This document shows positions 7,671-38,840 of a DNA stretch of 64,000 nt, piece after piece (within the stretch, counting starts at the first letter, position 1; every line of letters begins with the position of its first letter). This stretch comes from Styela clava. Its lineage: Eukaryota. Where the stretch lies: the NCBI RefSeq assembly GCF_964204865.1, contig NC_135257.1, positions 17,112,001 to 17,176,000 on the forward strand, read 5' to 3'. The notes under the pieces are model-generated. The model saw only the letters and a list, made by a program, of their open reading frames with translations, had not been told where the DNA came from and searched no databases. The position numbers and the translations under genes were made by a program.

Positions 7671-7990
7671 CGAGGCGAAATATAGATTTTGAATAGCACC
7701 AAGTCACCAAGCCACGAACGTTGACCCGACGTGAATTCTTATCTCAATGTTTCTCAGTGATATTTTTCATGAATTTTACCACGAGTGTCTAAATTAGCGT
7801 CCATTTAATTTATGAATTATCATCTCTGCCTCATTAATTTTTGCGTGTGTTCTTTTTTCGTCTAAATGTGGTCCTGCATGCGAAACTCCGTGTTGCACTT
7901 GGAATGAAACTGTCTGCCAATCATAACAAAATTTTCTCACCCGTCTCTTGAATACGGCGTGAAAGCAACACCAAAATGCCACATGTAAAT
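7671..7990 (-). pseudogene. Possible decayed C-type-lectin exon
   Basis: ttctAG acceptor (phase 1) and GTAAGG donor (phase 0), the same phases as the CTLD exon of the intact lectins. One frame gives CCFHAVF...INEAEMIIHKLNGR...EIRIHVGSTFVAW*LG (compare CFWSVV...VDEAKRICGVNNGL...DIRRKISADTFIWTG) with 4 stops. Confidence 0.3.
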
Positions 7991-9129
7991 CTAGAATATG
8001 TTACAAGAATTTTATCACGAATGTCTAAATTAGCATCTATTTAATTTATAAATAATCTCTGCCTTATTATTTTTGCGTGTGTTCCTTTTTTGCGACATTG
8101 GTTTGCGCAGTTGGAAGCCAGTCAGTTTAATTAAACATTCCCGATTTCGGGCTTCTCATCGTTTAAATCTGGTCCTGCCTGTGAGACTCGAATTGAAACT
8201 ACTTACCAATCAAAAGAACCGTCTCAACCGTAGCTAAGAATACGTTGTGATAGCAACACTAAAAGCTGCTTTCAATAATTGCACAATTTTCAAATGTTAC
8301 CTGATTTTGAAACATGCCTCTCGCCTAAAATTTCTTGCCGCGCATTCACAGCGGGTTGTATCATCTTGCCAATGCAGAATAAAAAGTTTGCCGTAGCTTA
8401 GAGTTCAGCAAAAAAATTAGGGTTGTGGCAGGACAAATATAGTTACATTTAAATAAAAAAATTCTGAGCAAATATCACTAACCGGCCTTCCGACCCATCG
8501 GGTCATCCCCATCTCAGAGTTAAGTAATGCTTGCCATCCTATTGATTTACGATGTTTAGTTTAGTACTACACATTGCCAAGACATCATCAAAATCCTTCA
8601 AAACTAACAAATCTTTTCGATTTTTCACCTTTTAAAATCTTGTTTAAGATTGTTCTCCAAAATTTCTTGTTCAGACATTTTGAAAACTGTGATCACTGAA
8701 TTCCTTACAATTCATTCTTTTCCAATGTCAAATGGACGCAATATTGTTGTTATAATGTTCCTAACCGAATGTAATCGTAGATAGTTGATGCAATGAACTG
8801 CATATCATTATTGAACATTTTGGCTTACGGCTTAGTACAAACACAACAGATATGGCTTAATTCTGCTTTAGGTGGTGAATTACTGACATGGTACATTTAT
8901 TAGCCATTCGTTGATATTATTCAATATTTTTCCTAGTACTCAAGCCTATATTTCCAACTTGTTGTTTATCAGTCTATCATAATTCATCGCTCCCTTTTAA
9001 AAGGATTTGAACCTGGGTAACATACGAAGCCTTCTAAAGTGCTTCGCCGTCTCGTACGTGTACCAAGTATATCCAGGTACACCCACTGCAGTGACGGTGA
9101 TATACGAAATGTGCGAGATGCACGGACAG

Positions 9130-9242
9130 GGCCGCTCCAGAAGTATGTGTACCAAGAGGACGCACAACCTGATAACCCTAACCTAGTACACATACTATGT
9201 TCAGGTTGTGCGCCATATTGGTACACATACTTCGGAAGTACC
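9130..9242. mobile_element. Palindromic GG..CC MITE (paralogous copy at ~35168-35260)
   Basis: Hairpin CTCCAGAAGTATGTGTACCAA...TTGGTACACATACTTCGGAAG, same family as the copies at 44029-53078. Confidence 0.8.
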
Positions 9243-10373: not shown

Positions 10374-10678
10374 TACTTATCGATTTTAATTTGTCTGTTT
10401 GTCTGTCTGTCTGTTGGATGCACGCGATATCTCACGAAAGCGAGATTGAATCTGCTCCAGATTTTGTATGTGCATTCACCATATGTCGGACCAGAAGCCT
10501 ATTGATTTTGTATAATTAGCGTATAATTTGTATAATAATTCGTATAATTGTCGTATAATTAGCGAGTTATTGATTAATTAGTGATGGGACACAAAGTGCC
10601 ATTATGGAGTAAGAGCGCTGTTTTGGGGATCCCCTAACTTTCGATCGATAAGTCTTCGGTCTCTGACCGATATTCTCG
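10374..10678 (+). mobile_element. Helentron-associated non-autonomous element (HINE/DINE-1-like)
   Basis: Subterminal inverted repeat ACTTATCGAT...ATCGATAAGT, (GTCT)n tract, 3' stem-loop TCGGTCTCTGACCGA, T-rich target without TSD. Absent at the paralogous site near 36386. Confidence 0.8.
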
Positions 10679-13493: not shown

Positions 13494-16400
13494 CTATTTT
13501 TCACAAATGACGCCGTGAAATTTGCTTGTAGGTGGATCGTTTCCCATTCCTTGTCTGCTGGATGATGGGTCAGTTTGAACGTGGATATACAAACCTGATT
13601 CTCCTGCGTTCGGAAATCCACCAGTCCACCACTTGACATACGACGCCCTTGTTCCGTCTCGCATGAGTACTGCATTCGTCTGTTTAATACAGATTTTAAA
13701 GTATGACAAATGATTTAATTTAGAAATCCTATCCATAAGATGTAATTTAACATTAGAATCGTTCCAAATGCCAATAATAAAAAAAATTTAACATAAAATT
13801 TATTACATCGTGTTGCGGAAAATGTTCGTGGTAAGCTACTTACTGATATATCGACTTGCATGCCTGTCCAAATAAACGTATCTGCCGATATTTTTCTGCG
13901 AATATCAGCCATCAGGTCGTTCAGATGTTGCTCGTTATAAACATTTGCAGGAAGCCCATTGTTTACTCCACAAATTCTTTTCGCTTCATCCACATTGATA
14001 TCCTTAGATGAATGCACTACTGACCAGAAGCAATGACCTAGATATTGTACGGGACAAAGTCCTGTAGAAAAACAATGCAAAATTTTCCGTTAAACTTTCC
14101 GTTTTTCTAGCATTGGAGACTTAAGAATAAATCAGGCAACGTCAACTACTAGAGTTTGGTCGCTTGAATGACATAACATGTGGATCCTAATACTGCTTTG
14201 GCCACTTATAATAACTCTACTAATTCTGTTCGTTTCACTTTTAGCTTAAGGTTTGTGATTTAGTTTTTAAATAAATTAAAAGTGTTAAACGTTTTCATAC
14301 AGACAAATACAAATAAACACTAATATTATATTAAATCATTTATCTCTCTATAACGCAGAAACTTGTTTATTTATAAGATCGTTCAATCTGTTAATGATAG
14401 TCTTTGTGCATATTTTATAATAAACGTTGATGATTGTCATTATAGGTTTATTTCTCTTGTGTTGATTACTGTTACGAAATAAATCCACAGATACTTCGTC
14501 AGAAATAACTTTTTTTGATAGTGTACCTTGTAACTTCAGCTGCCTGTGAGGATCGGAAACAGTTCTATTCATTTTTCGAATCATTTCTTCCATTTTATTT
14601 ATTCTTCCAACCAATCCCGTGTTCACTTTATTGCATTCTGTAAAGTAAGATGAAATCTTTTACACGACCCAGCCTACTAACTAAACACATATTATATTGT
14701 AATTTAACCAGAAAACAAGTAGGCTACATGCGTATCAAAGAAATATAAAAGACATCGCTGGAGTGTGCATTCTAGTGGCAATAGAGCTGACATAATCTCA
14801 AGTTTAAGATACTGGTCACACCACATTCCAATAAAATGAGAGACATTTGTGCAAACTTTTGTTCAAAGAAAAGGCTCGAAAAACGTTTATCGGCACAAGC
14901 TGTATCATAGATTAACCGAAACTAGGCTTCGAACATTGGGACTTGTCGTATTATCCTAATTTCTATAGTGTATTGATTATTACTTGAAGACCTATAGATG
15001 CTTAATTCCCATTGTTACTTATCGATCTTAAGATCGGTAAGTATTTTGATGGGTATTATTACTTATCGATCTTAAGATCGGTAAGTATGTTGATAGGTAT
15101 TTTTACTTATCGATCTTAAGATCGGTAAATATGTTGATAGGTATTTATCCGTCTGTATGTCTGTGTGTTAGATGCACGCGATATCTCACGAAAGCGAGGT
15201 TGAATCTGCTCCAAATTTTGCATGTGCATTCATCATAGCTCGGATCAGATGCCTATTGATTTTGGATGGATTATGTCTTATAATTAGCGAGGTATTAATT
15301 AATTATTTATGGGACACACGGTGTTACTATGGAATAAGACCACTGTTTTGGGAGATCCCCTAACCTTCGATTGATAAGTCTTCGGTTTCTAACCGATATT
15401 CTAGTTATTTTCTTAAGATGATAATTATGGCCTAATATAAGTAACTCACCGATCGTTTGTTGCATGAAGGATATGTTCTTCGCAACTTGTTCTCCGGAAT
15501 TCTTAATCAAGCCGATCAAGTTTTTCTGACAATTTACTGTTATTGAAAACAAACGTTAAATGGTTAGTTTGTGAAATCTGACATAAGTAAAGTGTCTTAT
15601 GCGGATTAAAGACGCCGGTAGTCGCTGAGACAGTGGCGTATCTAGGGTGTGGCAGCCATGGGCTCGGTTTGGATATGGGCGCAAAATGAACGAAAAGTTT
15701 TAATCGTATAAAAGTCAAATTTGAATTAAACAAAACTCGTATTTTCACTTAAATAATACCGTATAAATATCCCAATTAAACAACAGTCGTTAAAAATTGT
15801 CAGCCAACGATCAAGGCGGCGCCTTCGGCATTGGCATTGGCGCCACGTAGATACGCCACTGCGCTGAGGATAAGAATAGGCCATGTCTGCGAATGGGTGC
15901 AATTTATTTATTTGCATAGATATTTCGAAGCCATTTAGATGATTTTTTTCCTATTTATCAAATAAAACATACATATTACGTCATTTGCAATTCGAGCGCT
16001 TTTCTTATGTTTACTATAGATTCGATATGATTGTCTTACCTCGTTTATCATCTAAATCTGCTAAATTCTTTGCAATCGTTTCGTATCTTTGAGACAATCG
16101 TTGAATGTTATTCATGGCCTGACTTTGAATGCGATCGAGTAGTTGCTTTGAGGAATTCATTTCCTTCTTTTGTTCGCTGGTGATGTTTTGCAAGATCATG
16201 ATTTCTAAACATTATAATATCGGAATTTTTTATGAATGGATAATCGCTTAACATAATATAGAATAAGATTTTTTTTTTGTGTGTACCCGACCAGGGTTAG
16301 GGCATAATTTTATTTCGATTTTCTTTATTTTAGGTGTATTACGAGTTTGAGGACTGTCTGTGTTAGTCAAGTGAATATGCCCCCTGCCCATAGGTTTCAG

Positions 16401-18912: not shown

Positions 18913-21194
18913 AGCTATTATTTCCTATTTGTTGTCCTTCGCAAATAGAGGTATATGAAAGTTGAAAGTTAATTTTTTTTTTCTTATTATATATATATAT
19001 CATAAGAACTTCGCAATGAATGCATTTCGTTCGGTGCAAGTATTTATCACACTTTAAATAGGTTAGCACATTTAGTATCCAGCATATCGCTCAAATATTG
19101 ATTTCAAAATATTGAATTGATTTGTTCTGAAGAAGGGTTATTACTGGAGTGGCAGTCGTTTTTTTCGAACTCGTTGCAATCAAAATTTTGGGATTTGTTG
19201 AGTCGAATCTTCAGAATTTTGAGTGTGATAATTGAATCAAAATTCCCTACGGAGGCTCGAGAAAAAATTTAGTTTACTGAACGTTCTTCAGTCTATTATG
19301 GAAAGTCTGAATACGCCAAAGTTTTTGTCATCAAGATTTGATTTTATCGGTAGTTCGGAGCTGGAGTCACAATTACTATCAAATTCGAGTTCGGTTCAAA
19401 TTTATTTCAACCCGGAGTCTATTGTCAATTTTAACCGTCTCCATATTCTGACTCCAAATCCCAAGCAATAGGGCAATATTCAGATAGATAGACACAAAGG
19501 CCAAAACGAATTAATACGGGTTTAAATTCTTTCACAGTATCGTGTACGGAATCGCGGTCTTCGCGACTTCAACTGACCACATCGCAATGAGCGCGAACGC
19601 GGAACCGCCACAAGTTGCGCAATTTTTAATATGATGACATCATCACATACAAACTAACAAATCCGAAGAGCTCACAGAAATTTTTAAAATAAATAAAAGT
19701 AATAGTCTTCTAGCGATAACAACAATCTTTCACCACTGAAAATTACAAAGCAATTGGTCCAGGAATTTGAGAAAGAGGCGATTTCCCCACAACAACAAGA
19801 AAACGAATATAATTAAACTGCAATAACGTAATACTAAAACGATCTATACTTTCATCTTGTGTCCAATAAACGATGAAACCTCCTCGAAGCAAACATTCAC
19901 AAACTGATTCAACGTTTCATACTATTGTTGGACGAATTTGACATTTCCCTAACCTGACATTCCTGCTATCGGTCTATAGGGCGTATAGTTCACCATATTG
20001 TTGGGACGTCTTATTGTCTTTCTGCTCGTGATATTCATATACACCTCCTCTTTAACGTAAACTCAAACTCATTTTATATTTATTGAGAAACCGTTAAAAG
20101 TTACATGAAATTCAATATCGTTAACTCAATATAGTTTCTGAGATTTTTGTCAAATGCCTGATTAATTTTAAGTAAGAATTCACGCAAAGGGATTTTCAGC
20201 CAAATAATTTTGAGGCATACGACTCAGGCATATCTCAAGTCATCAGCGAGAACCTTGTCCATTCATTTTCAAAATTGCGCTTTTCTAAATAACTAATAGA
20301 CCTAGATATTACATGTCGTGTAAGACTGACTTGAATCGTCTCAGTCACAAATGCACAATTGAATCGATGACAAAGTGAAAATCAAATTACGTCCATGTCA
20401 CTGCGATCAGTTTTGGTCGATCAGCATAAATATAACGAACTAGATTCAATGAATAGCCTTTTCTTGAATGATGAATGATTCATATGTTCCAATATACAGG
20501 AAACTAAATTTTATAAACGACGATTTGCTTTACATATAACCTTACGTATCACCCGTCGCTTGAATATGGCGTGAAAGCAACACCAAAATGCCACATGCAA
20601 ACCTAGTATATTTACAAAAATTTTATCACAAATGTCTAAATTAGCATTCATTTAATTTATAAATCATCTCTGCCTTATTATTTTTTGCGTGTGTTCCTTT
20701 TTTGCGACATTGGTTTGCGCAGTTGGAAGCCTGTCAGTTTAAACATTCCTGATCTCGGGCTTCGTCGTTTAAATCTGGTCATGCCTGTGAGACTCCGTTT
20801 CGCACTCGAATTGAAACTGCTTACCAATCAAAAGAATCGTCTCAACCGTAGCTAAGAATACGTTGTGATAGCAACACCAAAAGCTGATTTTAATAATTGC
20901 ACAACTTTTCAAATGTTACCTGATTTTGAAACATGCGTCTCGCCTAAAATTTCTTGTCGCGCATTCACAGCGGGTTGGACCACCTCGATAGGGTTGGTAA
21001 CGTGCCATACATATACTGCCAAGAATATGCATATAGCGCCAACTGAATATTCATATACCGTCAATGTTATATACATATACAGCCAATTAATATCCAAATA
21101 CAGCCATTTTGGTGATTTACAATTACTGCCAAGTCATATGCATATATAGCCGAATCAATATATAAATAAAACAATCAAAATAAGATAGATTTAC

Positions 21195-21486
21195 CTATTT
21201 ATACCGGGAGAGAAGAAAGCCGAACCACGGCCGCTCGTCCGGTTACCATTTCATGTCGGGTATGGGATTAGCTAGGTATTTGTTTTCGGAAGCATGGACT
21301 TGATGGTGGAGGAAGCTGTAACCGTCAAGCGGTTACTTGAACCACCCTACGGCAGCAAGGAGACCAGAAATTTATTCGCACACAACCCTCCCCGCATGGG
21401 ATTCAAAACTGCGAACCCACGCAGATTAATCAGATTTGCGGTGGCGAGCGTATTCCTAACGCTTAGTACGATGAGTCACACCGCGT
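21195..21486 (-). mobile_element. tRNA-derived SINE (related partial copy at ~61655-61880)
   Basis: Minus strand starts GCGGTGTGACTCATCGTACTAAGCG (A-box-like) then GGGTTCGCAGTTTTGAATCCC (B-box-like); shared core GGGATTCAAA.CTGCGAACCCACGC at ~61810. Confidence 0.7.
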
Positions 21487-21859
21487 AAACTGCCAGTGTT
21501 AATATCATAATATATACCCCACAACAGCTGGTCATTGATTACACAAGAAATGTGCTGGCTGAAAATCGCTCTTCAGTGAACTATTCTTTGGCTAATGACA
21601 ATAAACTATTCACCAACTAATCGAATTAAAGCTTGGTGGAAAATGAAAAATATAAAACTGCCAATGTGCGTAGTTCTTGAGAAATATCCAATATGCACCA
21701 ACTTAGTTCTTCGGAGATATTCAATAAGCGCCAAATCAAGAAATATGCTGCATAAAAATCTATTTTTGAGGAACTATTTTTTGGCTATTGGCAATAAACT
21801 GTCCACAAAATAATCAAATAAACGCATGGTAGGAAATATAAACATAAAACTGCCAGTGC

Positions 21860-23409
21860 GCTAGTTCTTGAGAAATATCCAATAGGCGCCAAGTTAGTTC
21901 TCTTGAGAAATATCCAATAGGCGCCAACTCAGTTCTTCAGAAATATCCAATAGGCGCCAACTTGGTTCTTCAGAAATATCCAATAGGCGCCAACTTGAAT
22001 CTTCAGAAATATCCAATAGGCGCCAACTTAGTTCTTCAGAAATATCCAATAGGTGCCTACTTGGTTCTTCAGAAATATCCAATAGGCACCAACTTAGTTC
22101 TTCAGAAATATCCAATAGGCGCCAACTCAGTTCTTAAGAAATATCCAATAGGCGCCAACTTAGTTCTTAAGAAATATCCAATAGGCACCAACTTAGTTCT
22201 TCAGAAATATCCAATAGGCGACAACTCAGTTCTTAAGAAATATCCAATAGGCGACAACTCAGTTCTTAAGAAATATCCAATAGGCGCCAACTCAGTTCTT
22301 AAGAAATATCCAATAGGCGACAACTCAGTTCTAAAGAAATATCCAATAGGCACCAACTCAGTTCTTAAGAAATATTCAATAGGCGACAACTTAGTTCTTA
22401 AGAAATATCCAATAGGCGCCAACGTGATTCTTCAGAAATATCCAATAAGCGCCAACTTAGTTCTTCAGAAATATCCAATAGTCACCAACTTAGTTCTCCA
22501 GAAATATCCAATATGCGCAAACTTAGTTTTTCAGAAATATCTAACAGGCGCCAACTTAATTCTTCAGAAATATCCAATAGGCGCCCACTTGGTTCTTCAG
22601 AAATATCCAATAGGCGCCAACTTGGTTCTTCAGAAATATCCAATAGGCGCCAACTTGGTTCTTCAGAAATATCCAATAGGCGCCAACTCAGTTCTTAAGA
22701 AATATCCAATAAGCGCCAACTTGATTCTTCAAAAATATCCAATAAGCGCCAACTCAGTTCTTCAGAAATATCCAATAGGCGCCAACTTAGTTCTCCTGAA
22801 ATATCCAATAAGCGCAAACTTAGTTCTTCAGAAATATCCAATAGGCGCCAAATTGGTTCTTCAAAAATATCCAATAGGCGCCAACTTAGTTCTTCTGAAA
22901 TATCCAATAGGCGCCAACTTGGTTCTTCAGAAATATCCAATAGGCGCCAACTTAGTTCTTCAGAAATATCCAATAAGCGCCAACTCAGTTCTTAAGAAAT
23001 ATCCAATAGGCGCCAACTTAGTTCTCCTGAAATATCCAATAGCCGCCAACTTAGTTCTCCTGAAATATCCAATAAGCGCAAACTTAGTTCTTCAGAAATA
23101 TCCAATAGGCGCCAACTTGGTTCTTCAGAAATATCCAATAAGCGCCAACTCAGTTCTTCAGAAATATCCAATAGGCGCCAACTTAGTTCTCCTGAAATAT
23201 CCAACAAGCGCAAACTTAGTTCTTCAGAAATATCCAATAGGCGCCAACTTGGTTCTTCAGAAATATCTAATAGGCGCCAACTCAGTTCTTAGGAAATATC
23301 CAATAGGCGCCAACCTGGTTCTTCAGAAATATCCAATAGGCGCCAACCTGGTTCTTCAGAAATATCCAATAGGCGCCAATTTAGTTCTTAAGAAATATCC
23401 AATAGGCGC
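21860..23409. repeat. 30-bp tandem satellite, left part (~51 units)
   Basis: Consensus GAAATATCCAATAGGCGCCAACTTAGTTCTTCA-type repeat with 30-bp period. Confidence 0.97.
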
Positions 23410-26400
23410 TGTTGGGAAGTCTGATGAGCAGATTCTTTACAGATTACCAACTTGAGTGTCTTTGTATAAATCCAACGTTTGTGAATGAAGCATAACACAT
23501 TTAACCTAATGTAAGTCTAACTGTTAACAAAGATCTTAATACAACCAAATACTCCAATCAGTTAAATAGAAAATAACACAAACATGTATGATACAGGTAG
23601 AGAGAAATGGCATAGAAACAGAATGGCAGAAATGGCATACCCCAATATCTCCCCTTCGTAAAGGAAAAAGATATTTGTTTTTCAAAATATCACAAAATGA
23701 CAAAGTGAATAAATAACGAAATAGCAACAGGTAAAAAAACATTTGAACAGCAATAAACAAAGAAATAAAAATTGTTCAGTATTCATTATCAAATGTCTTA
23801 TTTTATCACATAGAACAGTCAGTATAGTCATGTTCATTCAGACAGCCCTGGCTTGTTGTAAGGCTGTAGGCGTCTCAAGGCCAGAGGTAATCTTGGTGGG
23901 TGCGTGGCTGGACGAGAAATAGCTGAGAGATTAGTTTGGTTTGACAAAGGGCGAAAAGGTGGGGGCCCCGAATTTGGAGGGTGGTTAGCTCTGGAGATAT
24001 GGCTAAAATGTGGCAGGTTGGGTGATATGGGAATTGTAGCTTTGGGTTCGAACAAAATAGGCTTTAGGAATCTCCGGTTTCGTGTGACTGTTCTTCCAGA
24101 TCCATCCATTCTAATCAAGTATTTACGGTGTTTGAAGCATTTCACAACTTTTCCTGACCTGTCCCATCTTTTGTTGATGGGATTTTGGATTGAAACGTTT
24201 GTTCCTTCTTCTAAAAATGGTAGGTCGTGTGCATGTTTGTTGTATTCAGTTTGTAGGTCAATATATTCCTGAGAAAGAGTTTTTTCTCTGGCTTTGGCTG
24301 CTTGTGTCCACAGTGGATTGAGCCGTAGGTTTGATGGGTGAATAGGTAAGAAGTCCCTCAGATGCCGAGAAAACAAAAGTTGTGCTGGACTGAGTCCAAT
24401 ATCACGGAGAGGGGTGTTTCGATATTGAAGAAGTGCTTCGCCGAATGAACGACTTTTTGGGGAACCGTCTGGCAGTAAATTGTCCCGGATGAGTCGTTTG
24501 GCTGTTTTTACGGCAAGTTCAGCTCGCCCATTTGATTGTGGATAGTGTGCTGACGAGATTCGACCTTTCACACCACAAATTTCCAGAAATTTCTTGAATT
24601 CCTCTGAAGCAAACTGAGGGCCACCATCAGTACTGAGTTCTTCAGCACAGCCAAAGCGCGTGAAAAGTTGTTCGAAAACAGGAATGATGCGGTTTGTGGA
24701 AGGTGATCGGTGAAAGTGGGCAATTTCAATCCATCCACTGAATCTGTCTGTGATTGCTAAGTAATCGTTACCATTTAGATAAAATAGGTCAGCACAGATT
24801 TGTTGAAAAGGCTATTGGGGTGAAGGTGTTGGTATGATAGTTTCTTGAACTTGAGATGGTGCAATATAGGAGCAAGTGGAGCAAGAAGATTTGAAGTTGA
24901 GAATGCATTTGTTCATTCCCGGCCAGTACACACAATCTTTTGCCCTAGCGACCATATTTGTGCAGCCCTGGTGGGCACTGTGTAGTGTATGGAGCACAGA
25001 TGATCTGAGCTGTCGAGGGATAACGAATCTTTTGTTATCTAAAACAATGATCTTGTTGTCGAAACAAGATAGTCTGTTACGTAGTTCCCAATAGGAGCGA
25101 ACCTCCGGTGAAGTGGCACTTCTTGTGGGAGGGAATCCAGAAGAAATAGTTTCATGTAACAGCTTATGTGATTTGTCAGCTTGACAAGCGTTTTGAAGCC
25201 TATCGATAGTCATTGCCCGATCCGTAAGAGGTCCATTCTCGTTTTCAATGTAACAATTTAAGGCTTGTATTGCATCGTGCATGAGAGACCAAGTGGTGTC
25301 GTCCTCTAGTTCAGCAGCAAAGAGGTCTTCATCAGTTGGATTAGAGGCAGAAAGTACTGGATTCCTTGAAAGCGCATCTGGCCCTCTGTGCCATTTTCCA
25401 CAACAGTGGTGTATGGAGAAATCGTATTGAGAAACTTTTGATCTGAATCTCAGCACGCGTGGGTTGCTGATGTCAGATAGTTGTCGGTTGCTGAACAATG
25501 GGACGAGGGGTTTGTGATCGGTTACTACAATGAGATCTTTACAGCCGAGGATGAAAGACTTGGCATGGTCTAAGCTCCAAGCAACCACAAGCGCTTCGCC
25601 TTCGATGGGTGCATAGTTTCTTTCAGCTCGTGAAGTGTGCCGAGAGCCGGCGTATACGAGATGCCAACCATCAGGGCAACAATTTGGGGCTTCATTTGTA
25701 CCGCAGGTGCAATATTTCTGTAGAAGTAGATATCCAATGCCGTCCTTGCTCCAGTCGCATTTGAATCAAAGATGGTCGATGAAGGTCAAATGATTTGATC
25801 CCTTCTTCACATAGGGTGATAAGTTTCGCTTTCGATTTCTCAAATATAGATTAAAGAGTGTCGTCCCATATGAATTTGGATCCCTTTTTTATTAGGTCGC
25901 GAAATGGGAGCATAATGGGGGAGATGGCGTAAGCCCATGATATTTGATTTACCAAGCCGTGCCAACTTCGAGCGTCGTGAATGTTTGTCGGAGGTGGGAA
26001 GTTTTTGATGGAGTCAAGAAGCGCTGGGGCAGGTGCAATCCCAGCAGGGGTTATTTTAAGGCCAGCAAATATGATGGTATCCTGACAGAATTTGAATTTA
26101 TCATGATTGAATACTATCCCCTTTTGAACGCTCAGTGTGAGAAAATCCCAAACTTGATAGAATGATGATTGAATGTCACTCTCATATAGGCATAGGTCAT
26201 CCACTACATGCTGTACTTTTTCAATGTTTGACTCTTCTAGAATGAGATCGAGGTTGCGATTGAAAATATCTCCTGCAGATTTAAAACCTTGAATAAGGCG
26301 TGTGTTCATAAATCTTCCCCAGGGTGTGATGAACGTTGTCAGTGGTTGATTTTCCTCATCTAGTGGGACGCTATGATAGCCATCAGTGATGTCCAAAATA

Positions 26401-28660
26401 GACTTTTTCGTGTTAGGAGGAATTTTGCAGGCAGCTTTGAATGGAGATGGATTATAGTGAGCTTCTCGTATGCACTGGGCGTTCAATTTCTGTAAATCAA
26501 TAGTTCGCCGGATAGATCCATTTTTCTTCAAGAGTGTGACCATGGGTGAACACCATGGTGTGATCATGCCTGGAGGTACGGGCTTTACTATGCCTTTTTC
26601 GACATCGTCCAGTAGTTTTTGCTTTGCTGGTTTCTCCATATGTATGGGTATTGGAATCGGTGTGTGGCGTGCATATGGGATAGCCTTCGGTTTGAGGTAG
26701 ATGTGTGCAGGTGGTCCCTGCATTGTGGGGAATGGTGGAGATCGGTCAAAGGCCCAGAATGTACTGTTTCAGTCTAGTTATGTTGTCCTCAGTTGGAGGA
26801 AAAGGAATGGACATAGGTCTGGTCGGTAGTGATTGAACCCGTTGATTTGTGATTGAGGGTTTTGTGGGAGACCTTGTGCTCGTAAGAGAGTTTATTGAGC
26901 TGGCATTAGGTGATGGCAGTGGAAAACTCTTCGGTAGGATGTCCAATGCTATACATGCATCTTTGCTTAAATATAGATGGCGTAGCTTTATCCCAGATTC
27001 AGTAAAGTATAGTTGTTGTTTTGTTTGTTTACCATATCCAATAATATTTATGTTTACGTTGGCATAGCAGTAAGCTTTGATAGTACTACCTCCTACAATG
27101 CGAATGCTTTTGTTACATTTTTGTAGAACTCTCTTCGATATGTGCAAATATGAAATATATGGATGTTCAGCGACACATATTGATGCTCCACTGTCCGGTA
27201 GTGCTGTCACAGGTTTGGAGCAGATGCTGTTTGCTGTAGACGAAGTATGAGAGATCTGAATTTTGATTTCAGCTAATGAGGAGTGTGGATCTCCAACGTT
27301 ATAAAGTGAAATTACGCTCAGATTTGCTTTTTCATCCACAGAATCTGAGTCTGACTGGGACTCGGATGATGTCATGGACTGTGCCTGTATTGCATTGCTT
27401 TTTGCGGAGAAGCATACTTTCTTGTAATGATTATCTTTTCGACAGTGAGAACAAGTTTTTTCCCATGCTGGGCCTCGATTCTTCCTGTCCATTTCTGTGG
27501 ATCCATGATTAAGACTGCCACATCCCCTACATGCAATGCGTCCTGAAGATGACTTCTTGCTAGGGCTTCTCTTTTGACGTTGTCTTTGTGTGGCGAAGTG
27601 TGATACAGAATATGATTGTGTGTGGCAGTGTATCGTTTCTTGATTTTGAATAGCCGATTCGTAAGCGGTGGCATACTTAACAACTTCCTCTAAGGTAATA
27701 AGGGCCTTTTTGTCTGCGCATTTGGACAGTATGTCAGCCTGAAGGGTTGTGTTGCAGATGCCCTTGATGAGCTGATCCCGAACGTGCCAGTCGGTTTGAT
27801 CAAACTTGCATGCTTCGCTTGGGCATATGTATTCGCAGTCGTGTGCCACAGAAAGCAGTCTGGCTACAAACTGTGTGACTGTTTCCCCAGTATGTTGCTG
27901 CATGTCCATGAATTTTGTTCTGTGCGTAAGAGGATTTAATTCTAGTGTGACAATGTTTCTGATTTTAGATAGGAATTCCTTTTCGGTTAAGTCTCTGAAC
28001 TCTGAACATGTGTTGTTGATGATTTTTTGAACTGCCTGATCACAAACAGAGTAAAGTAAATCATTGGCATGAACACTTGCATGTGGTTGAAGGTTCTTGA
28101 ATGTTGTCCACACGGATAAAGCAGTGCGAAAATCAGAACTAGACATTCTAGAATTCAGGTAACTTTACGGGCAGATTTAGTTTGGTGGGCTGAGAAGAGT
28201 TGGATATGTTTTGCTGAGAATGATTCAATATTTTAATTTGATGTGCTAAGATTGTTATACCCAAATCACTTTCAAGAGTATTTTTGTCCAGCTGTGGTAA
28301 TTCAGTCTCAGTGAGCTCATTAGCATGAAATGTATTTCCATATTCATCGGATCTCTCATCGGGGATGCCGAGAGATTTGAAAAAAGTACTCCAGCTGGTA
28401 GCATCTGTTAGTCGCAGCGCCATGTTGGGAAGTCTGATGAGCAGATTCTTTACAGATTACCAACTTAAGTGTCTTTGTATAAATCCAACGTTTGTGAATG
28501 AAGCATAACACATTTAACCTAATGTAAGTCTAACTGTTAACAAAGATCTTAATACAACCAAATACTCCAATCAGTTAAATAGAAAATAACACAAACATGT
28601 ATGATACAGGTAGAGAGAAATGGCATAGAAACAGGATGGCAGAAATGGCATATCCCAATA
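23410..28660 (-). mobile_element. Full-length Ty3/Gypsy (Mag-like) LTR retrotransposon, disabled
   Basis: 238-bp LTRs at 23410-23647 and 28423-28660 (3 differences seen); 5-bp TSD GGCGC; PBS-like TGGCGCTGCGA next to the 5' LTR; PPT AAGGGGAGA next to the 3' LTR; domain order gag-PR-RT-RH-INT. Confidence 0.96.
23834..28423 (-). pseudogene. Gypsy gag-pol polyprotein, broken by frameshifts and stops
   Basis: SAM-like N-terminus (28423-28148), gag with Cys/His knuckles (CRGCG..H, CSHC...H....C), protease LPDSGAS, RT (26723-25851, VVDD), RNase H, integrase HHCC plus TDGG and SNGRAE. Lesions near 28147, 26746, 25851 and 24812. Confidence 0.93.
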
Positions 28661-30556
28661 GGCGCCAACTTGATTCTTCAGAAATATTCAATAAGCGCCA
28701 ACTCAGTTCTTAAGAAATATCCAATAGGCGACAACTTAGTTCTTAAGAAATATCCAATAGGCGCCAACTTGATTCTTCAGAAATATCCAATAAGCGCCAA
28801 CTCAGTTCTTAAGAAATATCCAATAGGCGCCAACCTGGTTCTTCAGAAATATCCAATAGGCGCCAACCTGGTTCTTCAGAAATATTCAATAAGCGCCAAC
28901 TCAGTTCTTAAGAAATATCCAATAGGCGCCAACCTGGTTCTTCAGAAATATCCAATAGGCGCCAACCTGGTTCTTCAGAAATATCCAATAGGCGCCAACC
29001 TGGTTCTTCAGAAATATCCAATAGGTGCCAACTTAGTTCTTCAAAAATATCCAATAGGCGCCAACTTAGTTCTTCAAAAATATCCAATAAGCGCCAACTC
29101 AGTTCTTAAGAAATATCCAATAGGCGCCAACCTGGTTCTTCAGAAATATCCAATAGGCGCCAACCTGGTTCTTCAGAAATATCCAATAGGCGCCAACTTA
29201 GTTCTCCTGAAATATCCAATAAGCGCAAACTTAGTTCTCCTGAAATATCCAATAAGCGCAAACTTAGTTCTCCTGAAATATCCAATAGGCGCCAACTTAG
29301 TTCTTCAGAAATATCCAATAGGCGCCAACTTGGTTCTTCAGAAATATCCAATAGGCGCCCAGCCAACTTAGTTCCTCAGAAATATCCAATAAGCGCCAAC
29401 TCAGTTCTTCAGAAATATCCAATAGGCGCCAACTTAGTTCTCCTGAAATATCCAATAGGCGCCATTTTAGTTCTTCAGAAATATCCAATAGGCGCCAACT
29501 TGGTTCTTCAGAAATATCCAATAAGCGCCAACTCAGTTCTTCAGAAATATTCAATAGGCGCCAACTTAGTTCTCCTGAAATATCCAATAAGCGCAAACTT
29601 AGTTCTTCAGAAACATCCAATAGGCGCCAACTTGGTTCTTCAGAAATATCCAATAGGCGCCAACTCAGTTCTTGAGAAATATCCAATAGGCGCCAACCTG
29701 GTTCTTCAGAAATATCCAATAGGCGCCATCCTGGTTCTTCAGAAATATCCAGTAGGCGCCAACTTAGTTCTTAAGAAATATCCAATAGGCGCCAACTTGA
29801 TTCTTCAGAAATATCCAATAAGCGCCAACTCAGTTCTTAAGAAATATCCAATAGGCGACAACTTAGTTCTTAAGAAATATCCAATAGGCGCCAACTTGAT
29901 TCTTCAGAAATATCCAATAAGTGCCAACTCAGTTCTTAAGAAATATCCAATAGGCGCCAACGTGGTTCTTCAGAAATATCCAATAGGCGCCAACCTGGTT
30001 CTTAAGAAATATCCAATAGGCGCCAACCTGGTTCTTCAGAAATATCCAATAGGCGCCAACCTGGTTCTTCAGAAATATCCAATAGGCGCCAACTTAGTTC
30101 TTCAAAAATATCCAATAGGCGCCAACTTAGTTCTTCAAAAATATCCAATAAGCGCCAACTCAGTTCTTAAGAAATATCCAATAGGCGCCAACTTAGTTCT
30201 TCAAAAATATCCAATAGGCGCCAACTCAGTTCTTAAGAAATATCCAATAGGCGACAACTTAGTTCTTCAAAAATATCCAATAGGCGCCAACTCAGTTCTT
30301 AAGAAATATCCAATAGGCGACAACTTAGTTCTTAAGAAATATCCAATAGGCGCCAACTTGATTCTTCAGAAATATCCAATAAGCGCCAACTTAGTTCTTC
30401 AGAAATATCCAATAGGCGCCAACTTAGTTCTCCAGAAATATCCAATAGGCGCCAACTTAGTTCTCCAGAAATATCCGATAGGCGCCAACTTAGTTCTCCA
30501 GAAATATCCAATAGGCGCCAACTTGATTCTTCAGAAATATCCAATAGGCGCCAACT
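28661..30556. repeat. 30-bp tandem satellite, right part (~63 units)
   Basis: Same monomer as 21860-23409, resuming in register after the Gypsy TSD; one 4-bp insertion near 29360. Confidence 0.97.
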
Positions 30557-31735
30557 TCTTGGTTCATACAGAAATATGCAATAGGCTCCAACCTATGATG
30601 TCACAGTGCTCCACAACAGCTGATCGTTGATAATACGAGAAATGTGATAGCTGAAAATCTTATTTGAAAGAACTATTCTTCGGCTATTGGCAATAATCTG
30701 TCCACAAAATAATTAAATTAACGTTCGGTGGAATATATGAAACATAAAACTGTCTGTGCGCGTATTTCTTGATAAATATCCAATAAGCGCCAATCTATGA
30801 TGTCATAGTACCCCACAACAGATTATCTTGGATAGCGTGAGAAATGTGTTGCTGAAAATCTTTTTTTGGTGAATCGTGCTTTGGCTATTGACAATAAACT
30901 GCATAGAAATTAACCAAATTAACGTTTGGTCGAAACTATCATAGCTCACTATGCAGTTTGTTTAATTCAAGACAAATCGTCATTGTATTTAGTAGGATGA
31001 GACTACTACCGTTACGCGTACAGAAACTCGAAAACAACTTTTGATTAAAACATGAGAAATGACTTATAACAAGCGTAAAGTATAAGGATAAAAATATCCT
31101 AATATGAGCAGCATATAACATAAGACATAAAACTGCCGGTGAGGAGTTTTTGAGAAATATCCAATAGGCCCCAACTCAACTCTTCAGAAATATCCAATAG
31201 GCGCCAATCTATAATGCCATAGTGCTCCACAACAGCTGATCGTTGATAATACGAGAAATGTGATGGCTGAAAATCTTATTTGAAAGAACTATTCTTCGGC
31301 TATTGGCAATAACTGTCCACAAAATAATCAAATTAACGTTTGGTGGAATATATAAAACATAAAACTGCCTGTGCGCGTAGATCTCGATGAATATTCAATA
31401 GGCGCCAATCTATGATGTGATAGTGCTCCACAACAGCTGATCGTTAATAATACGAGAAATGTGAGGGCTGGAAATATTATTTGAAAGAACTATTCCACGT
31501 TTATTAGCAATAATCTGCCAAAAAAATAATCAAATTAACGTTTTGTGGAATATATGAAACATAAAACTGCCTGCGCGCGTAGTTCTCGATGAATATCCAA
31601 TAGGCGCCAATCTATGATGTCATAGTTCCCCACAACAGCTGATCGTTGATAATACAAGAAATGCGATGGCCAAAAATCTTATTTGAAAAAACTTTTTTTT
31701 GGCTATTGGCAATAATCTGTCCACAAAATGATCAA
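30557..31735. repeat. ~200-bp tandem repeat (further copies at 21495-21860)
   Basis: CCACAACAGCTGATCGTTGATAATAC-type motif recurs near 30610, 30813, 31227, 31428 and 31630; each unit contains one satellite-like monomer. Confidence 0.88.
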
Positions 31736-31741
31736 AAAAAT

Positions 31742-31915
31742 CATGCATCAGTGTATAACAGTCTTTTATCGAGTAAATATCCTGAAATCGTGCAGCTATG
31801 TGGGACCAATAGTGATAGTATCACAATTGAAGTGATGGCTGTTCAACAGCAGCGAGGAAATGAACGTGGGTACTTCGCTATAGTCAATGCCCTGGATCCC
31901 TGTATACTGACGTAT
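31742..31915 (+). pseudogene. Ulp1-like (peptidase C48) cysteine protease remnant
   Basis: VYNSL...IEVMAVQQQRGNERGYFAIVNALDP resembles the VYDSL...QQ..g.DCG.FAIA..DP consensus. Catalytic Asp and Cys would be lost by single transitions (GAC>AAC, TGT>CGT); the catalytic His segment is absent. Confidence 0.65.
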
Positions 31916-32069
31916 TGCAATAAATTTAATGAAGGGCTCGAAATGGCATTCATTCAATATGATATTGACGTTTGTTGGAGTCACATTAAACCTTATTCGG
32001 TTGAAGATTAAAAAAGAATGGAGAAATTGAGAACTTGGAAGATGTCATATTATTCCACCATGAACACCG

Positions 32070-32473
32070 ATGGTACTGTCAATCTACAATAGCATCCGTG
32101 ACCTATTTCCAAATACAACCTTGCCCACTGGTGACAACAAAATTAGAAGTGTTCCAAATGAAACATATTGCAAATTAAGCGGAAACACATCCAAAATTTC
32201 GACGGGCGGTACGTATAAAATCTACCTGGACAAATTCATAATTTTAATTTTGAAGCCGGATAAGCTTGATATTTCATTATTCTTTCACACGATTATGCAT
32301 AAAATGGCCCATGTCATGGTGCCGATAGAAACAGCCAGTCAAGCACATGCAAAAGAATTATAAAAATGTGGAATATTCATTCTAAGGCTTTTTAAATTGC
32401 ATCGAAAAATGTCACCTGAGCAGTGGCAGTGTTTTCCAGTAATTGACAAGTCAATTCTTAATAAGTCAGTATG
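32070..32473 (+). pseudogene. SprT-like zinc metalloprotease remnant
   Basis: LSIYNSIRDLFPNTTLP...HTIMHKMAHVMV......AHAKEL*KCG fits the SprT pattern (F...LP; TllHEMaH; H-G-x-x-F). HEXXH Glu>Lys by GAA>AAA; in-frame stop at 32361-32363. Confidence 0.6.
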
Positions 32474-32623
32474 ATGGAATATTTAATATTTTCACATGTA
32501 ATGAAAATACCTTTATCGAACTCAAGTTACAAGTACAAGCTAACAATTAAAATGTGTAACTATACAATCTTGCTGGCATTTATTTCGTAGTATATAATGT
32601 TGTGCCATTTTAATGCTCTAAAA

Positions 32624-32997
32624 CTGCGGTTCCCAAACTATGGGTCACGACTCACTGGTGGGTCGCAAGGGTAATCTCAGTGGGTCGTGAAAAGATGTAG
32701 AAAGCTTTGATCAATTATACTGGTTATTGGGATCGGTGGCAAAGCAAATTTCAAAATAAACTGCAGCTTTTCAAGTTTTTACGTCTAAAACTATATGACA
32801 TTGAAATAAATGTCAAGTCTATTATGGAAAATAGCAAGAAACAATTTCATCTTTTTCACTAGCTTCACTGAAAATTCAATTTGAGAAATTAAATTTGTTT
32901 CCTCCAATGTCTTGTTAATTTGTTAAAGTTAATAGGGTCGCCATAAGCTGTGGTAAAAAATAGTGGGTCCCAACTCTAAAAAGTTTGGGAACCACTG
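32624..32997 (+). mobile_element. Internally deleted copy of the hAT-Buster/Charlie element at 147-729
   Basis: Same ends and body; TSD CTCTAAAA / CTCCAAAG. Confidence 0.88.
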
Positions 32998-35900
32998 CTC
33001 CAAAGTCTAAAATATTATCTTATTTCTTTACAACAGGAGTTTTCGAATGGTGCGACACGGCGCACTGACGAGTCATTTTAATTTTGCTTCGCACAAATAT
33101 TTAATAGTCATACTTTACTGACTGTAGGTATGCATATTTAAATAAACTTACATAACTGTAGTCAATAATTACTGATCAAATCAAACCACAATGTTACTTT
33201 CTGAGTTCAAGATTAGTTCAATTTAGTGATACCGAAAAATTTGTGAATATTCAGCTTGTACCAAAAATGATACAAACGGTTTGTCCAAGAGCTTAACAAT
33301 GCTAAGTAATCACGTCTCATAAAGCTAACCAAACTTGATTTGCAGTGTTTCTCTTACGTAAAGTCTTACCGCTGAATGATGTTCAGATCATGGAATGATG
33401 TTCATATCATTTTTATATCTACTTTACGCTAGTTGCCAGTCATTTTTTTATATTGTTGGTTGGTTATACTGTTGGTTGTGATTATTTTTAATGGATAATA
33501 CACTTTTGTGGTTTATTGTTTTTATAATTAAATTACACATGAAGGGGCACAAAAGTCTTCAGTGCTTAGGGCACCAAAGGGGCTTAATCCGCCCCTGACA
33601 AGACACAATGAAAACGTATCGAACGCGCCACTCTCAGCCCCTTTATCCACGAATAAGACACATGCATTAATCAGCTTCTTCTTTATACACTTGGCAAAGA
33701 ACAGCGATTTTCTTAAATGAATAAAACACAATTGATCAACTTGCATATATATTCCGATCCGGGTGGCTAATACAATTACGATATATAACAGATAAGTAAA
33801 CAGTCCACAATACGGACAAATATCTGCGGCTCTTACACAATGAATACGTGATGCGAAAATGACCGAAAAAAAAAACGCTTAACAAGACAACAGATAAAAT
33901 TACTAATTTACGCTACAAGCAAAGGAAAAAAAAGGTAATAATGGGTCGACAATGATTGGTTACACGCAGCGCACGATGCACTGTATACAGAGGCAAAATG
34001 TAGGATAAAATTGTAAACAACGTACCACGAGAAGCTGACATTGTACGCTTCGAACAAATAACATGTTACTTGTCACTAGAGACTAAATGATGCTAATATC
34101 TCAATATATAATATGACATATATTTTATACTTATCGTAAGTAACTGCAACAAAAGTCGTTTTGGAGTTTCTGAGAGGTATTTTCAAAACCCTAACCCTAA
34201 CACACTTATTATATCATATGTATATCTAATTGGCTGTACATGCATATGACTTGGCAGTATTTGTACATCACCAAAATGGCTGTATTTGGATGTTAATTGG
34301 CTGTATATGGATATGACCTTGGCTCTATATAAATATTTAGTTGGCGCTATATGTATATTTAGTTGGCGCTATATGTATATTTTATGCTGTATATGTATAT
34401 CACGTTACCAACCCACTCGATCATCTTGCCAATGCAGACTAAAAAGTTTGCCGTAGCTTAGAGTTCAGCAAAAAATTAGGGTTGTGGCAGGACAAATATA
34501 GTTACATTTAAATAAAAAAAATTCTGAGCAAATATCACTAACCGGCCTACCGACTCATCGGGTCATCCCCATCTCAGAGTTAAGTAATGCTTGCCATCTT
34601 ATTGATTTACAATGGTTAGTTTAGTACTACACATTGCTAAGACATCATCTCCATCAAAACTAACAAACTTTTCGATTTTTCACCTTCTGATTTCTTTCTC
34701 AAGATTGTTCTCCAAAATTTCTTGTTTAAACTTTTCGAAAATATTATTTTGATGTGAAGTGTACAAACCGTGATTACTGAATTCCTTACAATACATTCTT
34801 TTCCAATCTCAAATGGACGCAATTATGTTGTTATAATGTCTCTAACCAAATGTAATCGTAGATACTTAATGCAATGAACTGGATATCGTTATTAAACATT
34901 TTGAATTACTGACATTTTAAGTATGCATGGTGCATTTATTAGCTATTCTTTGAAATTAATCAATTTTTTTCCTGGTACTCAAGCCTATATTTCCAACTTG
35001 TTGTTTATCAGTCTATCATAATTCATCGCTCCCTTTTAAAAGGATTTGAAGCTGGGTAACATACGAAGCCTTCCAAAGTGCTTCGCCGTCTCGTACGTGT
35101 ACCGAGTATATCCAGGTACAGACACTGCAGTGACGGAAATAAACAAAATGTGCGAGACGCACGGACAGGACCGCTCCAGAAGTATGTGTATCAAAATGAC
35201 GCACAACCTGATAACTGTTCAGGTTGTGCGCCATTTTGGTACACATACATCGGGAGTACCCAGACATGAGCTAAGATTTAAAAGTAGAACGAAATAAGGG
35301 AACGAAAACCTGGCAAGATAACTTAAAATAAATTAGACAAACAATACCTCCACGCCTGTGATCTAGTCCAGATTGATAATAGCATACTTTGAACTAACCC
35401 AGAAACGTGCCCAAACGTTATCGGGTATATTGAATAGGAATCGTTGCTATTGTCATATACAGTGAACTACAAGCATAATTTTTATAGCGAACTTTACTGC
35501 TGTGTGAACTATAAATAATGAATTCATACATAACTCCAAGTATGCGTCTATAACTGGCAATGGCTGAACTGGAAAACCCAATCTGGCTTTGGTATGAATT
35601 TATAATATCTATAACAGAAATAAACAAATAATATAAATAAATCACCTATAACGGTAATGGTATTTAAAAAGGCAGAAGGCGTATGGCAGAACTTAAACTG
35701 GATTTGCTTACACACATAGCAATTATAATATAGCCCATTTTGTAGAATGAGGTCCTAAAATGACAGGGGTGAGTAAATAAAACGAATTAATTGCTTATAA
35801 CGGAAATTATTCACTTTCTTGAGACAATAAACTGCAAGGAATAAAAAGGAATACTAAGGATTTGCCTGCATACATGGAAATACGTAGCCCAAGAGTGGGT

Positions 35901-38840
35901 TCCAACTAGCGATTGGTGTTAAACTGATTTTACTGGCTCAGATCGGGATCTTCTTTTTCGAATCACTTTCAAATCGAAAATTTTGACCGTATATATATCC
36001 AAGTGTATAATGACTGTATAAAAATGTATATATCCAAATAGTTTTTATGTGGATTTTTCAATTATTGAAATCGATATTTCTTCTTAAGTCGTTCAAATTT
36101 TCTCCGACCATGATTGTAAACTTCATATTCATGTCGCAAAAGTGAATTCTTTAAATTATCAATTGAGGTTTGAGATTGAATACCTTTCCGCCTAGTATCT
36201 GTCTCCTTCCGCCATCTTTTACCACTTCGCTTATATTATTTTAATGCTTCAGTGAAATAATTTAAAAGCATTTTTTCAAATAACTGTAATGTATTTTCAA
36301 ATTCTTTTGTTAGTCCAATTGCTTAGTAATGGCAATGGGTTTCTCAGATACGAAGTGAACATACTTTTCGTTTTGCAAAATTGTTGTTTTATTTGTTATT
36401 ACTTAATAATTAAAGAGATACAAAAAACTGATTTACAAACCTATGTTAAGGGCTTTTCTTCAAATTTTAGCTAAGCTGGAATGCTTTATATAAACTATAT
36501 TTTATTATTTTTTTTTATTTAAATTGAATCAACTAAACAAATTTTCAAATTAATTCGTGGTACAAGGTTCATTGGTTTTGAGAAAGGAGATTGGATTTAA
36601 AATTTCTTGAATGTTTCTCAATCAAACACATCTGGCATTTACATCAAAGCCATGAGCAAAGTAACAAACACTATTTTTGAATCCATCTGAAATATGAAAA
36701 TAAAAAATAACAAAATAGTATTTCTACAAAATCTGTACGCACTCTGTAGTACTAAGGTTTTGGCAAGGGGGTTATGAGACCATCGCTAAGTCGAAGAATT
36801 GTTTGATATAATTCTTATCTTAGCGATAGGACTCATTATTTCATTCTGTTTTGGTTTATTGAAAACATTATTTGTAGTTCAGATATCTACGAATAGTTTA
36901 ATCCGACAATAGAACATGTCGATCCCTCAATCACTGTTCGAGCCTATTTCTGACCAAAGCGTAGTAATGATCTGTAACCAGTAAGACCATCTGTATATAG
37001 TAGTCTATGAGCATCTCCCATCGGTGGCTTCTTGCACATGACTTTATGCGGAGCAATGTGAAATAAATAGAATCGCCATTTGAGTAAACTGACATCCAAT
37101 TTGTCTTATTGCGCAAAATTTTGCAATTTCCAGTTCGTTCTTAACATTCGTCGGGCAAACTTATATCTATAGACGTAACTTATCGCGTCTAAAAACCCAA
37201 TTAGTGGGTTGGATGTGGATGTGATAGTGGTTTGGCGCTGGATGTGATGGCACTAAATCGTAATCTTACTCAAAACCTCAACCAGTTTTGTGTTTCTATT
37301 AGGTCATATATAGGAGCCATAGCCGAAAAGATTTGAATAAACATTTAAATAAAATCTCTTTCGTTCCGTCTGGCGGATTACGCTTGCACATACAGTCTTG
37401 TGAAATATTTCTTTTTAGATAATTCCATTTTCCCAGGACTGAAAAATGCTTAAACCTACTCTCAAGAAATTTGGTGGTTGCTTGCTTACTTACGACCTTG
37501 TTCGAAAATCCCAGTACCAGTGTAAATCAATATTTAATAATCAGTATTTTGATGATCGAAGACTAAGGACCAATGAACATCTCACTCAGAGCTTGGTTCG
37601 GTAAACCAGGGAAATCCAATCCATAACATATAATGACTTAAACAACTTAGTGAATGCTGAGTGGACGAAGTGTACATGACTTCGTTTAAAAACGAAGTAA
37701 ACCTCTTCCGGCTCATAAATGTAGTAGTAGCCTGAAAATTCTTTGGTGCTACTTTGGTATGCGATCAAACGCATAGTAATCTTTTCTCAAGTTTATTAGA
37801 TTCTATTGCGTTACGCAATGCGTCAGTATTGGAACGAATAATTACTATCCAACATTTGCTCAATTTTCTGGAATTCTTAAAGACTAAAAAGCCACGCATG
37901 GCAAAACCCCAATCAAAAAAATATATTGCTATGTGACATAATATACATATATATGTGTTATGTTATATTAATAACATGCAAAATTTAATCAAAGAGTAAA
38001 AGCTCGGAGAATATATATACAAGCATTCAGCAATAGCAATATCACATAAGTGTTATTAAATCAATGTAATTAGTTGTAAGTTTATAGCGGAGTTTTACGC
38101 CTGATAGGCCGTGATTGGTATTGCAATGTTTAAGAACTAATTTTAATAAAATCGGACGTAAATTTGTTCACCAAGTTTAAGTCTCGTTTAACCTTTCTTT
38201 TATTAGATTGATTTGATTTGATATTAACTTGCTGCATTTATTTTACAAATTATTTCAATCCCGGTCATTTCATTTTCTATTTCAACCCTATCAACCGAAA
38301 GAAATTTTATAGAAAGTTGCAAACGAATTTCTTTGTATATTTACAAATTGGCAGAGAGCAAAACAAATATATGTTTTTTTACAAGTGCCTACTTGTAATC
38401 ATTGTTAAGGCCAAAAATCTAAAACAAATTGGAAGCATTTTTATGAAAATATCAACTGTTGAAAGCGTCATGTTATATATAACATGCAATACATTTATGT
38501 CACATATACTTGTCACATTTGCCAATATTAGGTTTCTCACTATCACAGGAAACCTTTTTCAATACTCCGATTGTGTGAGAAGAAAGTAAAGAAGGATTTT
38601 CACAAATATACCAAGAATGATGAATTCGGTAAAAAAGGTTTATTCATCTGGCGGAGCAAGGATGTCTTCCGGTCATCAGTATAGATATGTTGTGGGAATA
38701 GTGAGCCAGCTTTCCACGCGATATAATCGGGAATGGCAACTTATCGTCAAAACTAAGTGAAACAGTGTTAAAATGTGTTTCACCAAATACAGAATTTGAA
38801 ATATAATTCAAACATAAGGACATCTTGAATACATTGAATT

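Follow-up and report, generated by a model that had tools for sequence, protein, structure and literature searches.

The window analysed here, 64,000 nucleotides of AT-rich eukaryotic DNA from Styela clava, contains a 13,426-bp element bounded by terminal inverted repeats (TIRs) at positions 20990-34415, and this element is very probably old, non-autonomous and derived by deletion from a cut-and-paste transposon of the CxC4/KDZ type (Zisupton/HMGXB3-like, HMGXB3 being, we assume, a Zisupton derivative). Two protease fragments inside it, one Ulp1-like and one SprT-like, are best read from their sequence as what remains, in decayed form, of the 3' end of a single transposase gene, with the domain order of its relatives. 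An earlier note on this DNA had taken them for two adjacent genes, stand-alone passenger proteases of an unknown large element. In the relatives they are instead laid out in one frame, as C-terminal domains, separated by a PHD finger, of a predicted CxC4/KDZ-type transposase, and this places the element near the Zisupton/KDZ group. The remains of the gene in the window are as follows.

31742..32008, + strand: C-terminal half of an Ulp1/C48-like domain; the His region is gone and the Asp and Cys positions are substituted.
32012..32063, + strand: what is probably left of the helical linker preceding the SprT domain, placed from spacing and by eye; the PHD finger of the relatives is missing.
32064..32471, + strand: SprT-like zinc-protease domain up to the C-terminus of the family; the Glu of HExxH is substituted, one stop is present and the frame differs from that of the Ulp1 piece.

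Family profiles were run on 642 six-frame chunks of the window. The SprT-part profile, built from 11 relatives, matched at 32073-32459 with an E value of 3e-13 (positions 36-166 of 171), the next window chunk reaching E 7, and the Ulp1 family profile matched at 31742-31906 (E 1e-4) in the same orientation; the two co-oriented, decayed protease fragments of the earlier note were thereby recovered. When the seed protein was left out of the profiles, the SprT piece scored 48.1 bits versus 5.0 for the best of 500 shuffles and the Ulp1 piece 20.5 versus 15.0, the latter giving 10.5 versus 3.9 when the search motif was masked. Comparison by hhalign gave 96% (E 3e-9) for the SprT piece and 92% for the Ulp1 piece. 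The distance from the Cys position to HExxH is 212-236 residues in the relatives versus 433 bases in the window copy, and this shortened spacing indicates that the PHD finger is missing and that the frame has shifted. Both proteases are predicted to be dead in the window copy, which has lost the transposase core as well as the PHD finger.

Searches with the fragments themselves were far less informative. No protease match was obtained for either fragment in Pfam, PHROGs, NCBIfam or PDB sequence searches (a RecA row in the PDB search was rejected as an artefact of a four-fold repeat), and there were no matches among 1.84 billion representatives, in two homologue searches or by phage tblastn. 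The ESM Atlas gave weak leads only, to a Peptidase_C48 cluster (0.88) and an SprT-like cluster (0.83). A single-sequence model of the SprT piece had a predicted local distance difference test score (pLDDT) of 38 and was unusable, no structure match reaching Z 5. For single-sequence searches the window copy has decayed too far: the two domain names first proposed found no match with Pfam directly, but held with profiles built from relatives.

Scanning with a degenerate form of the Ulp1-like motif yielded 119 metagenome loci. Locus L050 matches both window fragments in the same order and encodes, in one frame with two stops, a CxC4 domain, a transposase-like core, Ulp1, PHD and an SprT-like domain with the motif HEMAH, the 5' third of the gene being missing. 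A search based on L050 gave 27 proteins, sea-cucumber proteins included, one of which bears the NCBI name HMG domain-containing protein 3. Among 28 relatives, Pfam detected CxC4 (PF18717) in 15, Peptidase_C48 in 10, PHD in 11 and SprT-like in 11 (4 above the cut-off), with CxC4 and SprT in one chain in 5 of the 28. In the core alignment the columns C-x-H, D, D-x-x-H and E-Q are conserved and look KDZ-like to us, and a long low-complexity linker lies between core and tail. A SWIM-like CxCx(n)CxH was seen by eye, with no Pfam match; SAP was found in 2 of the 28, both of them fish proteins outside the SprT group, and a weak SAP_new25 in 1. The relatives' predicted protein is thus a chain of 1,500-1,700 amino acids (aa) with zinc fingers, CxC4, a transposase core, Ulp1, PHD and an SprT-like protease.

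The same layout is found in two uninterrupted single-exon open reading frames (ORFs), at loci L121 and L122 (1,497 and 1,602 codons), both of which have CxC4 and the SprT part. Their contigs are filed in a bacterial genome bin (G001). This bin holds the animal-type transposon contigs L121, L122 and L134 together with many PHD-finger ORFs, and protein P0014 is thus misfiled as bacterial. Directly after the transposase ORF of L122, at 5901-7800, 84-bp tandem arrays in alternating orientation were observed.

Across 120 loci, the core profile matches 3, all 3 with the SprT part, which occurs in 4 loci overall although 63 of 119 have room for it. Since the core-bearing loci all have it and few others do, the pairing seems specific to this lineage rather than general to Ulp1-like genes. 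The SprT part is present in 13 of the 28 rows, the others stopping before it or lacking the tail, and in a tree of 23 of the 28 rows (5 had too little core) two fish proteins without the tail fall outside; both results come from a search that favoured tail-bearing proteins, and for the tree only midpoint rooting was used. Loci L002-L120 represent a large family of animal Ulp1-like domains on varied long ORFs, usually with PHD next and mostly without SprT. L001, a chance octapeptide in a glycosyltransferase-like ORF, was discarded, and no relatives were found in viral contigs by motif and alignment scans.

In view of the failed direct searches (Pfam, PHROGs, NCBIfam, PDB, the 1.84 billion representatives and two homologue searches), the fragments could be taken for part of some unrelated host gene (SENP plus SPRTN/GCNA) that was captured, or for a chance likeness in a repeat-filled interval. 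This explanation is highly improbable: it is largely refuted by the family-profile match and by the terminus of L050 described below, and the profile scores versus shuffles, the domain order, the intronless layout, the shared terminus and the divergent copies in four sequencing runs all speak against it.

The tail of L121 was folded with 12 alignment rows (pLDDT 84). Residues 1-179 of the model matched SENP3, SENP5 and Ulp1 (Z 15.5-16) and the NEDD8 protease SENP8 (Z 15.0); as the latter ties with the SUMO proteases, the fold does not show SUMO specificity. For residues 272-405, SPRTN (6MDX), an enzyme that repairs DNA-protein crosslinks, was the best match (Z 9.9, root-mean-square deviation 2.9, 103 aligned residues), Wss1 reaching 7.9. 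The Ulp1 residues H69, D87 and C137 and the zinc ligands H352, H356 and H369 are invariant in 12 of 12 rows (26-60% identity), the Glu nearly so, and HExxH is present in all 11 relatives of the SprT profile. That the catalytic residues of the two domains vary hardly or not at all argues that both activities are under selection. The relatives' Ulp1 domain is modelled as a His-Asp-Cys triad on a CE-clan fold, and their last domain as HExxH with a third zinc-binding His in a minimal zincin fold. In the latter it resembles SPRTN, Wss1 and GCNA, but only the protease core aligns, it is fused to a transposase and it is dead in the window copy. For the PHD of the relatives, the closest solved relatives are Spp1, PHF2 and BPTF, whose PHD fingers are, we take it, readers of methylated H3K4.

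The ends of the window element were delimited as follows.

20984..20989, no strand: left flanking duplication CTCGAT, 6 bp.
20990..21185, + strand: left TIR with 22-bp subrepeats; bases 2-14 equal the terminus of L050.
34208..34415, - strand: right TIR, with one 22-bp unit more than the left.
34416..34421, no strand: right flanking duplication CTCGAT, 6 bp.
8240..8480, + strand: paralogous site without the element; about 9 bases are gone at the junction, CTCG among them.

The inverted ends are 83.6% alike over 171 bp (85% over 152 bp in a second comparison), and the terminal 13-mer has 2 matches in the whole window, both at these ends, where 0.05 would be expected. The TIRs, which the earlier note had called long and rich in subrepeats, do contain 22-bp subrepeats but are only about 190 bp in length. 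The CTCGAT duplication was confirmed: it is 6 bp and exact when the ends are set where L050 and L134 have them. With ends one base shorter, 6 of 8 bases agree and both outer bases mismatch (the copy is old, and the paralog is deleted at this site); no 9-bp duplication is present. Paralogous copies of the flanks, without the element, occupy 7937-8366 (89.6%) and 8360-10374 (87.4%). This site had been proposed as an empty one, and its junction indeed closes correctly at 8360; since about 9 junction bases including CTCG are gone, it gives no proof that CTCGAT was the target. The flanks belong to a segmental duplication of about 7 kb (7937-14985 versus 20549-20985 plus 34420-40331, 87-93% alike), within which an exon-like frame is repeated at 13715-14089 and 39062-39436, lectin-like by eye and with no Pfam match.

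Termini of the same kind are found at other loci. The L050 gene is enclosed by TIRs in which bases 2-14 are those of the window element and base 1 differs, with subterminal units of 168 bp. L134 has an identical 17-base terminus with subterminal repeats; no second end was found there. In G001, a 15-base subterminal motif is confined to two places, upstream of the L121 ORF (2 copies), whose start is less than 300 bp away, and inside the L134 terminus (5 copies), i.e., 7 matches versus 1 in the control. A version one base shorter occurs 104 times in the window, always within the element; these copies suggest that the 33-bp array described below may be an amplified candidate binding motif. A 15-base terminus match at L030 was dropped, as it sits in a different palindromic repeat, and the 24-base pattern of the window TIR retrieved nothing from the metagenomes.

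Fish Zisupton also carries a C-terminal Ulp1. The Zisupton/KDZ group is described in PMC12730594, PMC11343200 and PMC9297572, its layout being CxC4 plus SWIM plus KDZ (PMC11343200), and Zisupton and Dileera make 8-bp duplications (PMC12730594, PMC11343200). The relatives share with it CxC4, a transposase of 1,400-1,600 aa and TIRs, the SWIM-like and weak SAP-like motifs being possible further likenesses; they differ in adding PHD and an SprT-like protease at the C-terminus and in being single-exon ORFs, Zisupton being described as multi-exonic. The Repbase family rule aligns bases 1-11 of the TIR with those of a family member and allows one mismatch (PMC4455052); against L050, which stands here in place of named Repbase Zisupton ends, base 1 differs and bases 2-14 are identical.

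Several observations weigh against placing the window copy in this lineage. The family transposase-core profile finds no remnant in the window (best E 0.59 over the 642 chunks), as the earlier note had also recognised no transposase; with no transposase sequence left, it is the 3' domains and the termini that carry the link. A generic animal Ulp1-like profile scores the Ulp1 piece equally well (21.8 bits), so that the lineage assignment rests on the SprT piece. The YbeY-like AQ_1354 reaches Z 8.7, within about 1 of SPRTN, of which only the protease core (residues 41-152) aligns. Pfam KDZ (PF18758) is matched in 0 of the 28 relatives (E 0.05) and in 0 of 5 pieces, and the exact duplication is of 6 bp and not 8. 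L050 shows no duplication, no paired termini are present at L121, L122 or L033, and in L134 the same terminus lies 1.2 kb from a 794-aa ORF unrelated to the CxC4-type transposase. The element would work like a Zisupton, but the KDZ profile and the duplication length make it only a candidate member in the formal sense.

The L134 frame also bears on another explanation, namely that the ends belong to a foldback element of the MULE (Mutator-like element)/Rehavkus type and that a MULE-like transposase moves the CxC4-Ulp1-PHD-SprT gene, or the tail of it, as cargo. By its DDE and CxxH-like motifs we take the open 794-aa frame to be of MULE/NOF type, and a piece in L134:4491-11449 to be a USP-like peptidase. 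Rehavkus, moreover, has TIRs of 26-400 bp, a minisatellite and a PHD finger (PMC6446971). Nevertheless this explanation seems improbable. Rehavkus and MULEs make duplications of 8-11 bp (PMC6446971) and no 9-bp duplication flanks the window element; at L134 a single end is present, and neither the window nor Pfam gives a match to its ORFs; both ends surround the CxC4 gene at L050, and the L121 ORF starts close to the subterminal motif. For want of a 9-bp duplication and of a match to the L134 ORF, membership of MuDR/Rehavkus was rejected. L134:4491-11449 also points to a possible sharing of ends by two transposase types, that of the CxC4 family and a MULE/NOF-like one.

Among other systems, the CxC4/KDZ-type relatives resemble in layout Ginger1 (PMC2836005) and MuDR/Rehavkus (PMC6446971), in which Ulp1 and PHD are fused behind the transposase and, for Rehavkus, long TIRs and a minisatellite are found too. 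These differ in their transposases, TGT ends and duplications of 4 bp (Ginger1) or 9 bp (Rehavkus), and the parts of these papers available report no SprT domain. IS3EU, hAT6, Dada and Polinton have the same 6-bp duplication length; they and Ginger, candidates by duplication length or Ulp1, were rejected. IS3EU ends in TAYGG (PMC12730594), Dada is described as lacking TIRs, and neither the TIR element proper nor the relatives contain hAT, integrase, polymerase or capsid genes; for Polinton/Maverick, polymerase B, integrase, capsid and adenain were absent from the element proper and from all 28 relatives.

The earlier note had suspected a transposon family pairing an Ulp1-like with an SprT-like protease, and this pairing is upheld by the relatives. 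The functions proposed in that note, anti-silencing and the clearing of protein-DNA complexes, are conjectural. An SprT-type metalloprotease on a transposase was not found in full-text searches of the literature, nor in the available parts of PMC6431247, PMC7599744, PMC7325037, PMC5718144, PMC3424704 and PMC12062965; Bohne 2012, Iyer 2014, supplements or Repbase may already mention it. The CxC4-Ulp1-PHD-SprT combination is already in database annotations. Ulp1 and PHD add-ons are known from several transposases, and the SprT-like protease add-on is, within these searches, apparently new.

The interior of the window element consists largely of repeats:

21227..21434, no strand: nested dispersed repeat with a second copy at 61688-61845; presumably SINE-like (short interspersed nuclear element) from its look.
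21519..21931, + strand: subterminal repeat units of about 200 bp, same family as 30600-31736.
21862..23409, + strand: left part of the 33-bp tandem array, 46.8 copies, holding a motif that resembles the relatives' subterminal motif.
23410..28660, - strand: nested Ty3/Gypsy-type long terminal repeat (LTR) retrotransposon, in the order gag-like, reverse transcriptase, RNase H, integrase.
28650..30592, + strand: right part of the 33-bp array, 58.6 copies.
30600..31736, + strand: repeat units of about 200 bp, adjoining the truncated gene.
32617..33005, no strand: nested high-copy repeat resembling a miniature inverted-repeat transposable element (MITE), second copy at 140-732; missing from other copies of the element.
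33467..34067, no strand: further high-copy repeat pieces of the 3' region, from read depth and loose ends.

The element does span 13.4 kb, the size given before, but this size is inflated by the nested Gypsy-type element of 5.2 kb, the satellite arrays and smaller repeats. The LTR element accounts for 5,256 of the 13,426 bp and the 33-bp array for about 3.5 kb (about 105 copies); the units of about 200 bp, the repeat of the 61688-61845 type and the MITE-like repeat make up most of the rest. The Gypsy-type element, which lies outside the TIR element proper, is young and inserted into the 33-bp array: its LTRs are 98.7% alike, a 5-bp duplication GGCGC flanks it, and reverse transcriptase, RNase H and integrase are matched, in frames broken in three places.

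Four public sequencing runs, which share at most 0.27 of words and may come from another population or species, contain several divergent pieces over the protease region. At position 31865, the Cys-giving base is present in all 8 raw reads and in 4 contigs of three contig runs, where the window has Arg. The Cys thus survives in other copies, and HExxH and the transposase core in the relatives. Over 31800-31965, one run contig has 18 extra bases, close to the length missing there according to the family alignment, and joined forms lacking the MITE are present. Forty variants were listed across copies, the zinc-motif codon not among them, and 393 more lie beyond this listing. In each of the four runs the TIR region has deeper cover than the protease region, a difference not taken as copy number since the flank has no raw-read cover.

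Elsewhere in the window, an intronless ORF of the TANGO2 family lies at 1723-2604 on the minus strand (Pfam E 3e-54), and a tandem block at 43650-53860 is made of units of 2-4.5 kb that are 86-95% alike, and contains MITE-like repeats of either orientation.

The window copy was most likely mobilised in trans by a CxC4/KDZ-type transposase, which would bind the subterminal motif amplified in the 33-bp array. In the copy itself the core and the PHD finger were lost and the active sites broken, and the Gypsy-type element and small repeats inserted later. As for the transposase tail, the folds and the known biology of SPRTN and Wss1 tentatively suggest, at somewhat less than even odds, a chromatin-clearing module. 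The PHD finger would dock on methylated H3K4, the Ulp1 domain would strip a tag, either SUMO or a different ubiquitin-like one, and the SprT domain, being tethered, would cut a protein blocking the DNA ends or the target, most likely the tightly bound transposase complex itself after strand transfer.

The main rival explanation of the tail, which we consider rather unlikely, is that, in the same element, SprT is an autoprocessing or self-destruct protease which splits the transposase from Ulp1/PHD or limits its level. SPRTN and Wss1 self-cleave, and SPRTN has its own DNA-sensing zinc module; the SprT domain of the relatives ends the protein and aligns to the protease core only, so that this module is absent, and the long linker parts core from tail. 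This linker, however, is unconserved, and the proposal agrees with the chromatin-clearing one on the identity of the element, differing in function alone. It is also possible, though doubtful, that the relatives form a distinct, undescribed animal lineage of the KDZ clan with GGGTTGGTAACGT ends and 6-bp duplications, whose SPRTN-like protease would break down, where insertion takes place, the complex of transposase and DNA or chromatin proteins of the host.

The window copy is a fossil, and its interest lies in the family to which it points. If the distinct-lineage reading is true, these transposons would encode their own parallel to DNA-protein-crosslink repair, joined within a single chain to de-SUMOylation and the reading of histones. 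How transposase complexes of eukaryotes are removed from DNA after integration, and why transposons gain ubiquitin/SUMO proteases, are open questions, and the intact natural ORFs L121, L122, P0005, P0007 and P0011 make both testable with single active-site mutants.

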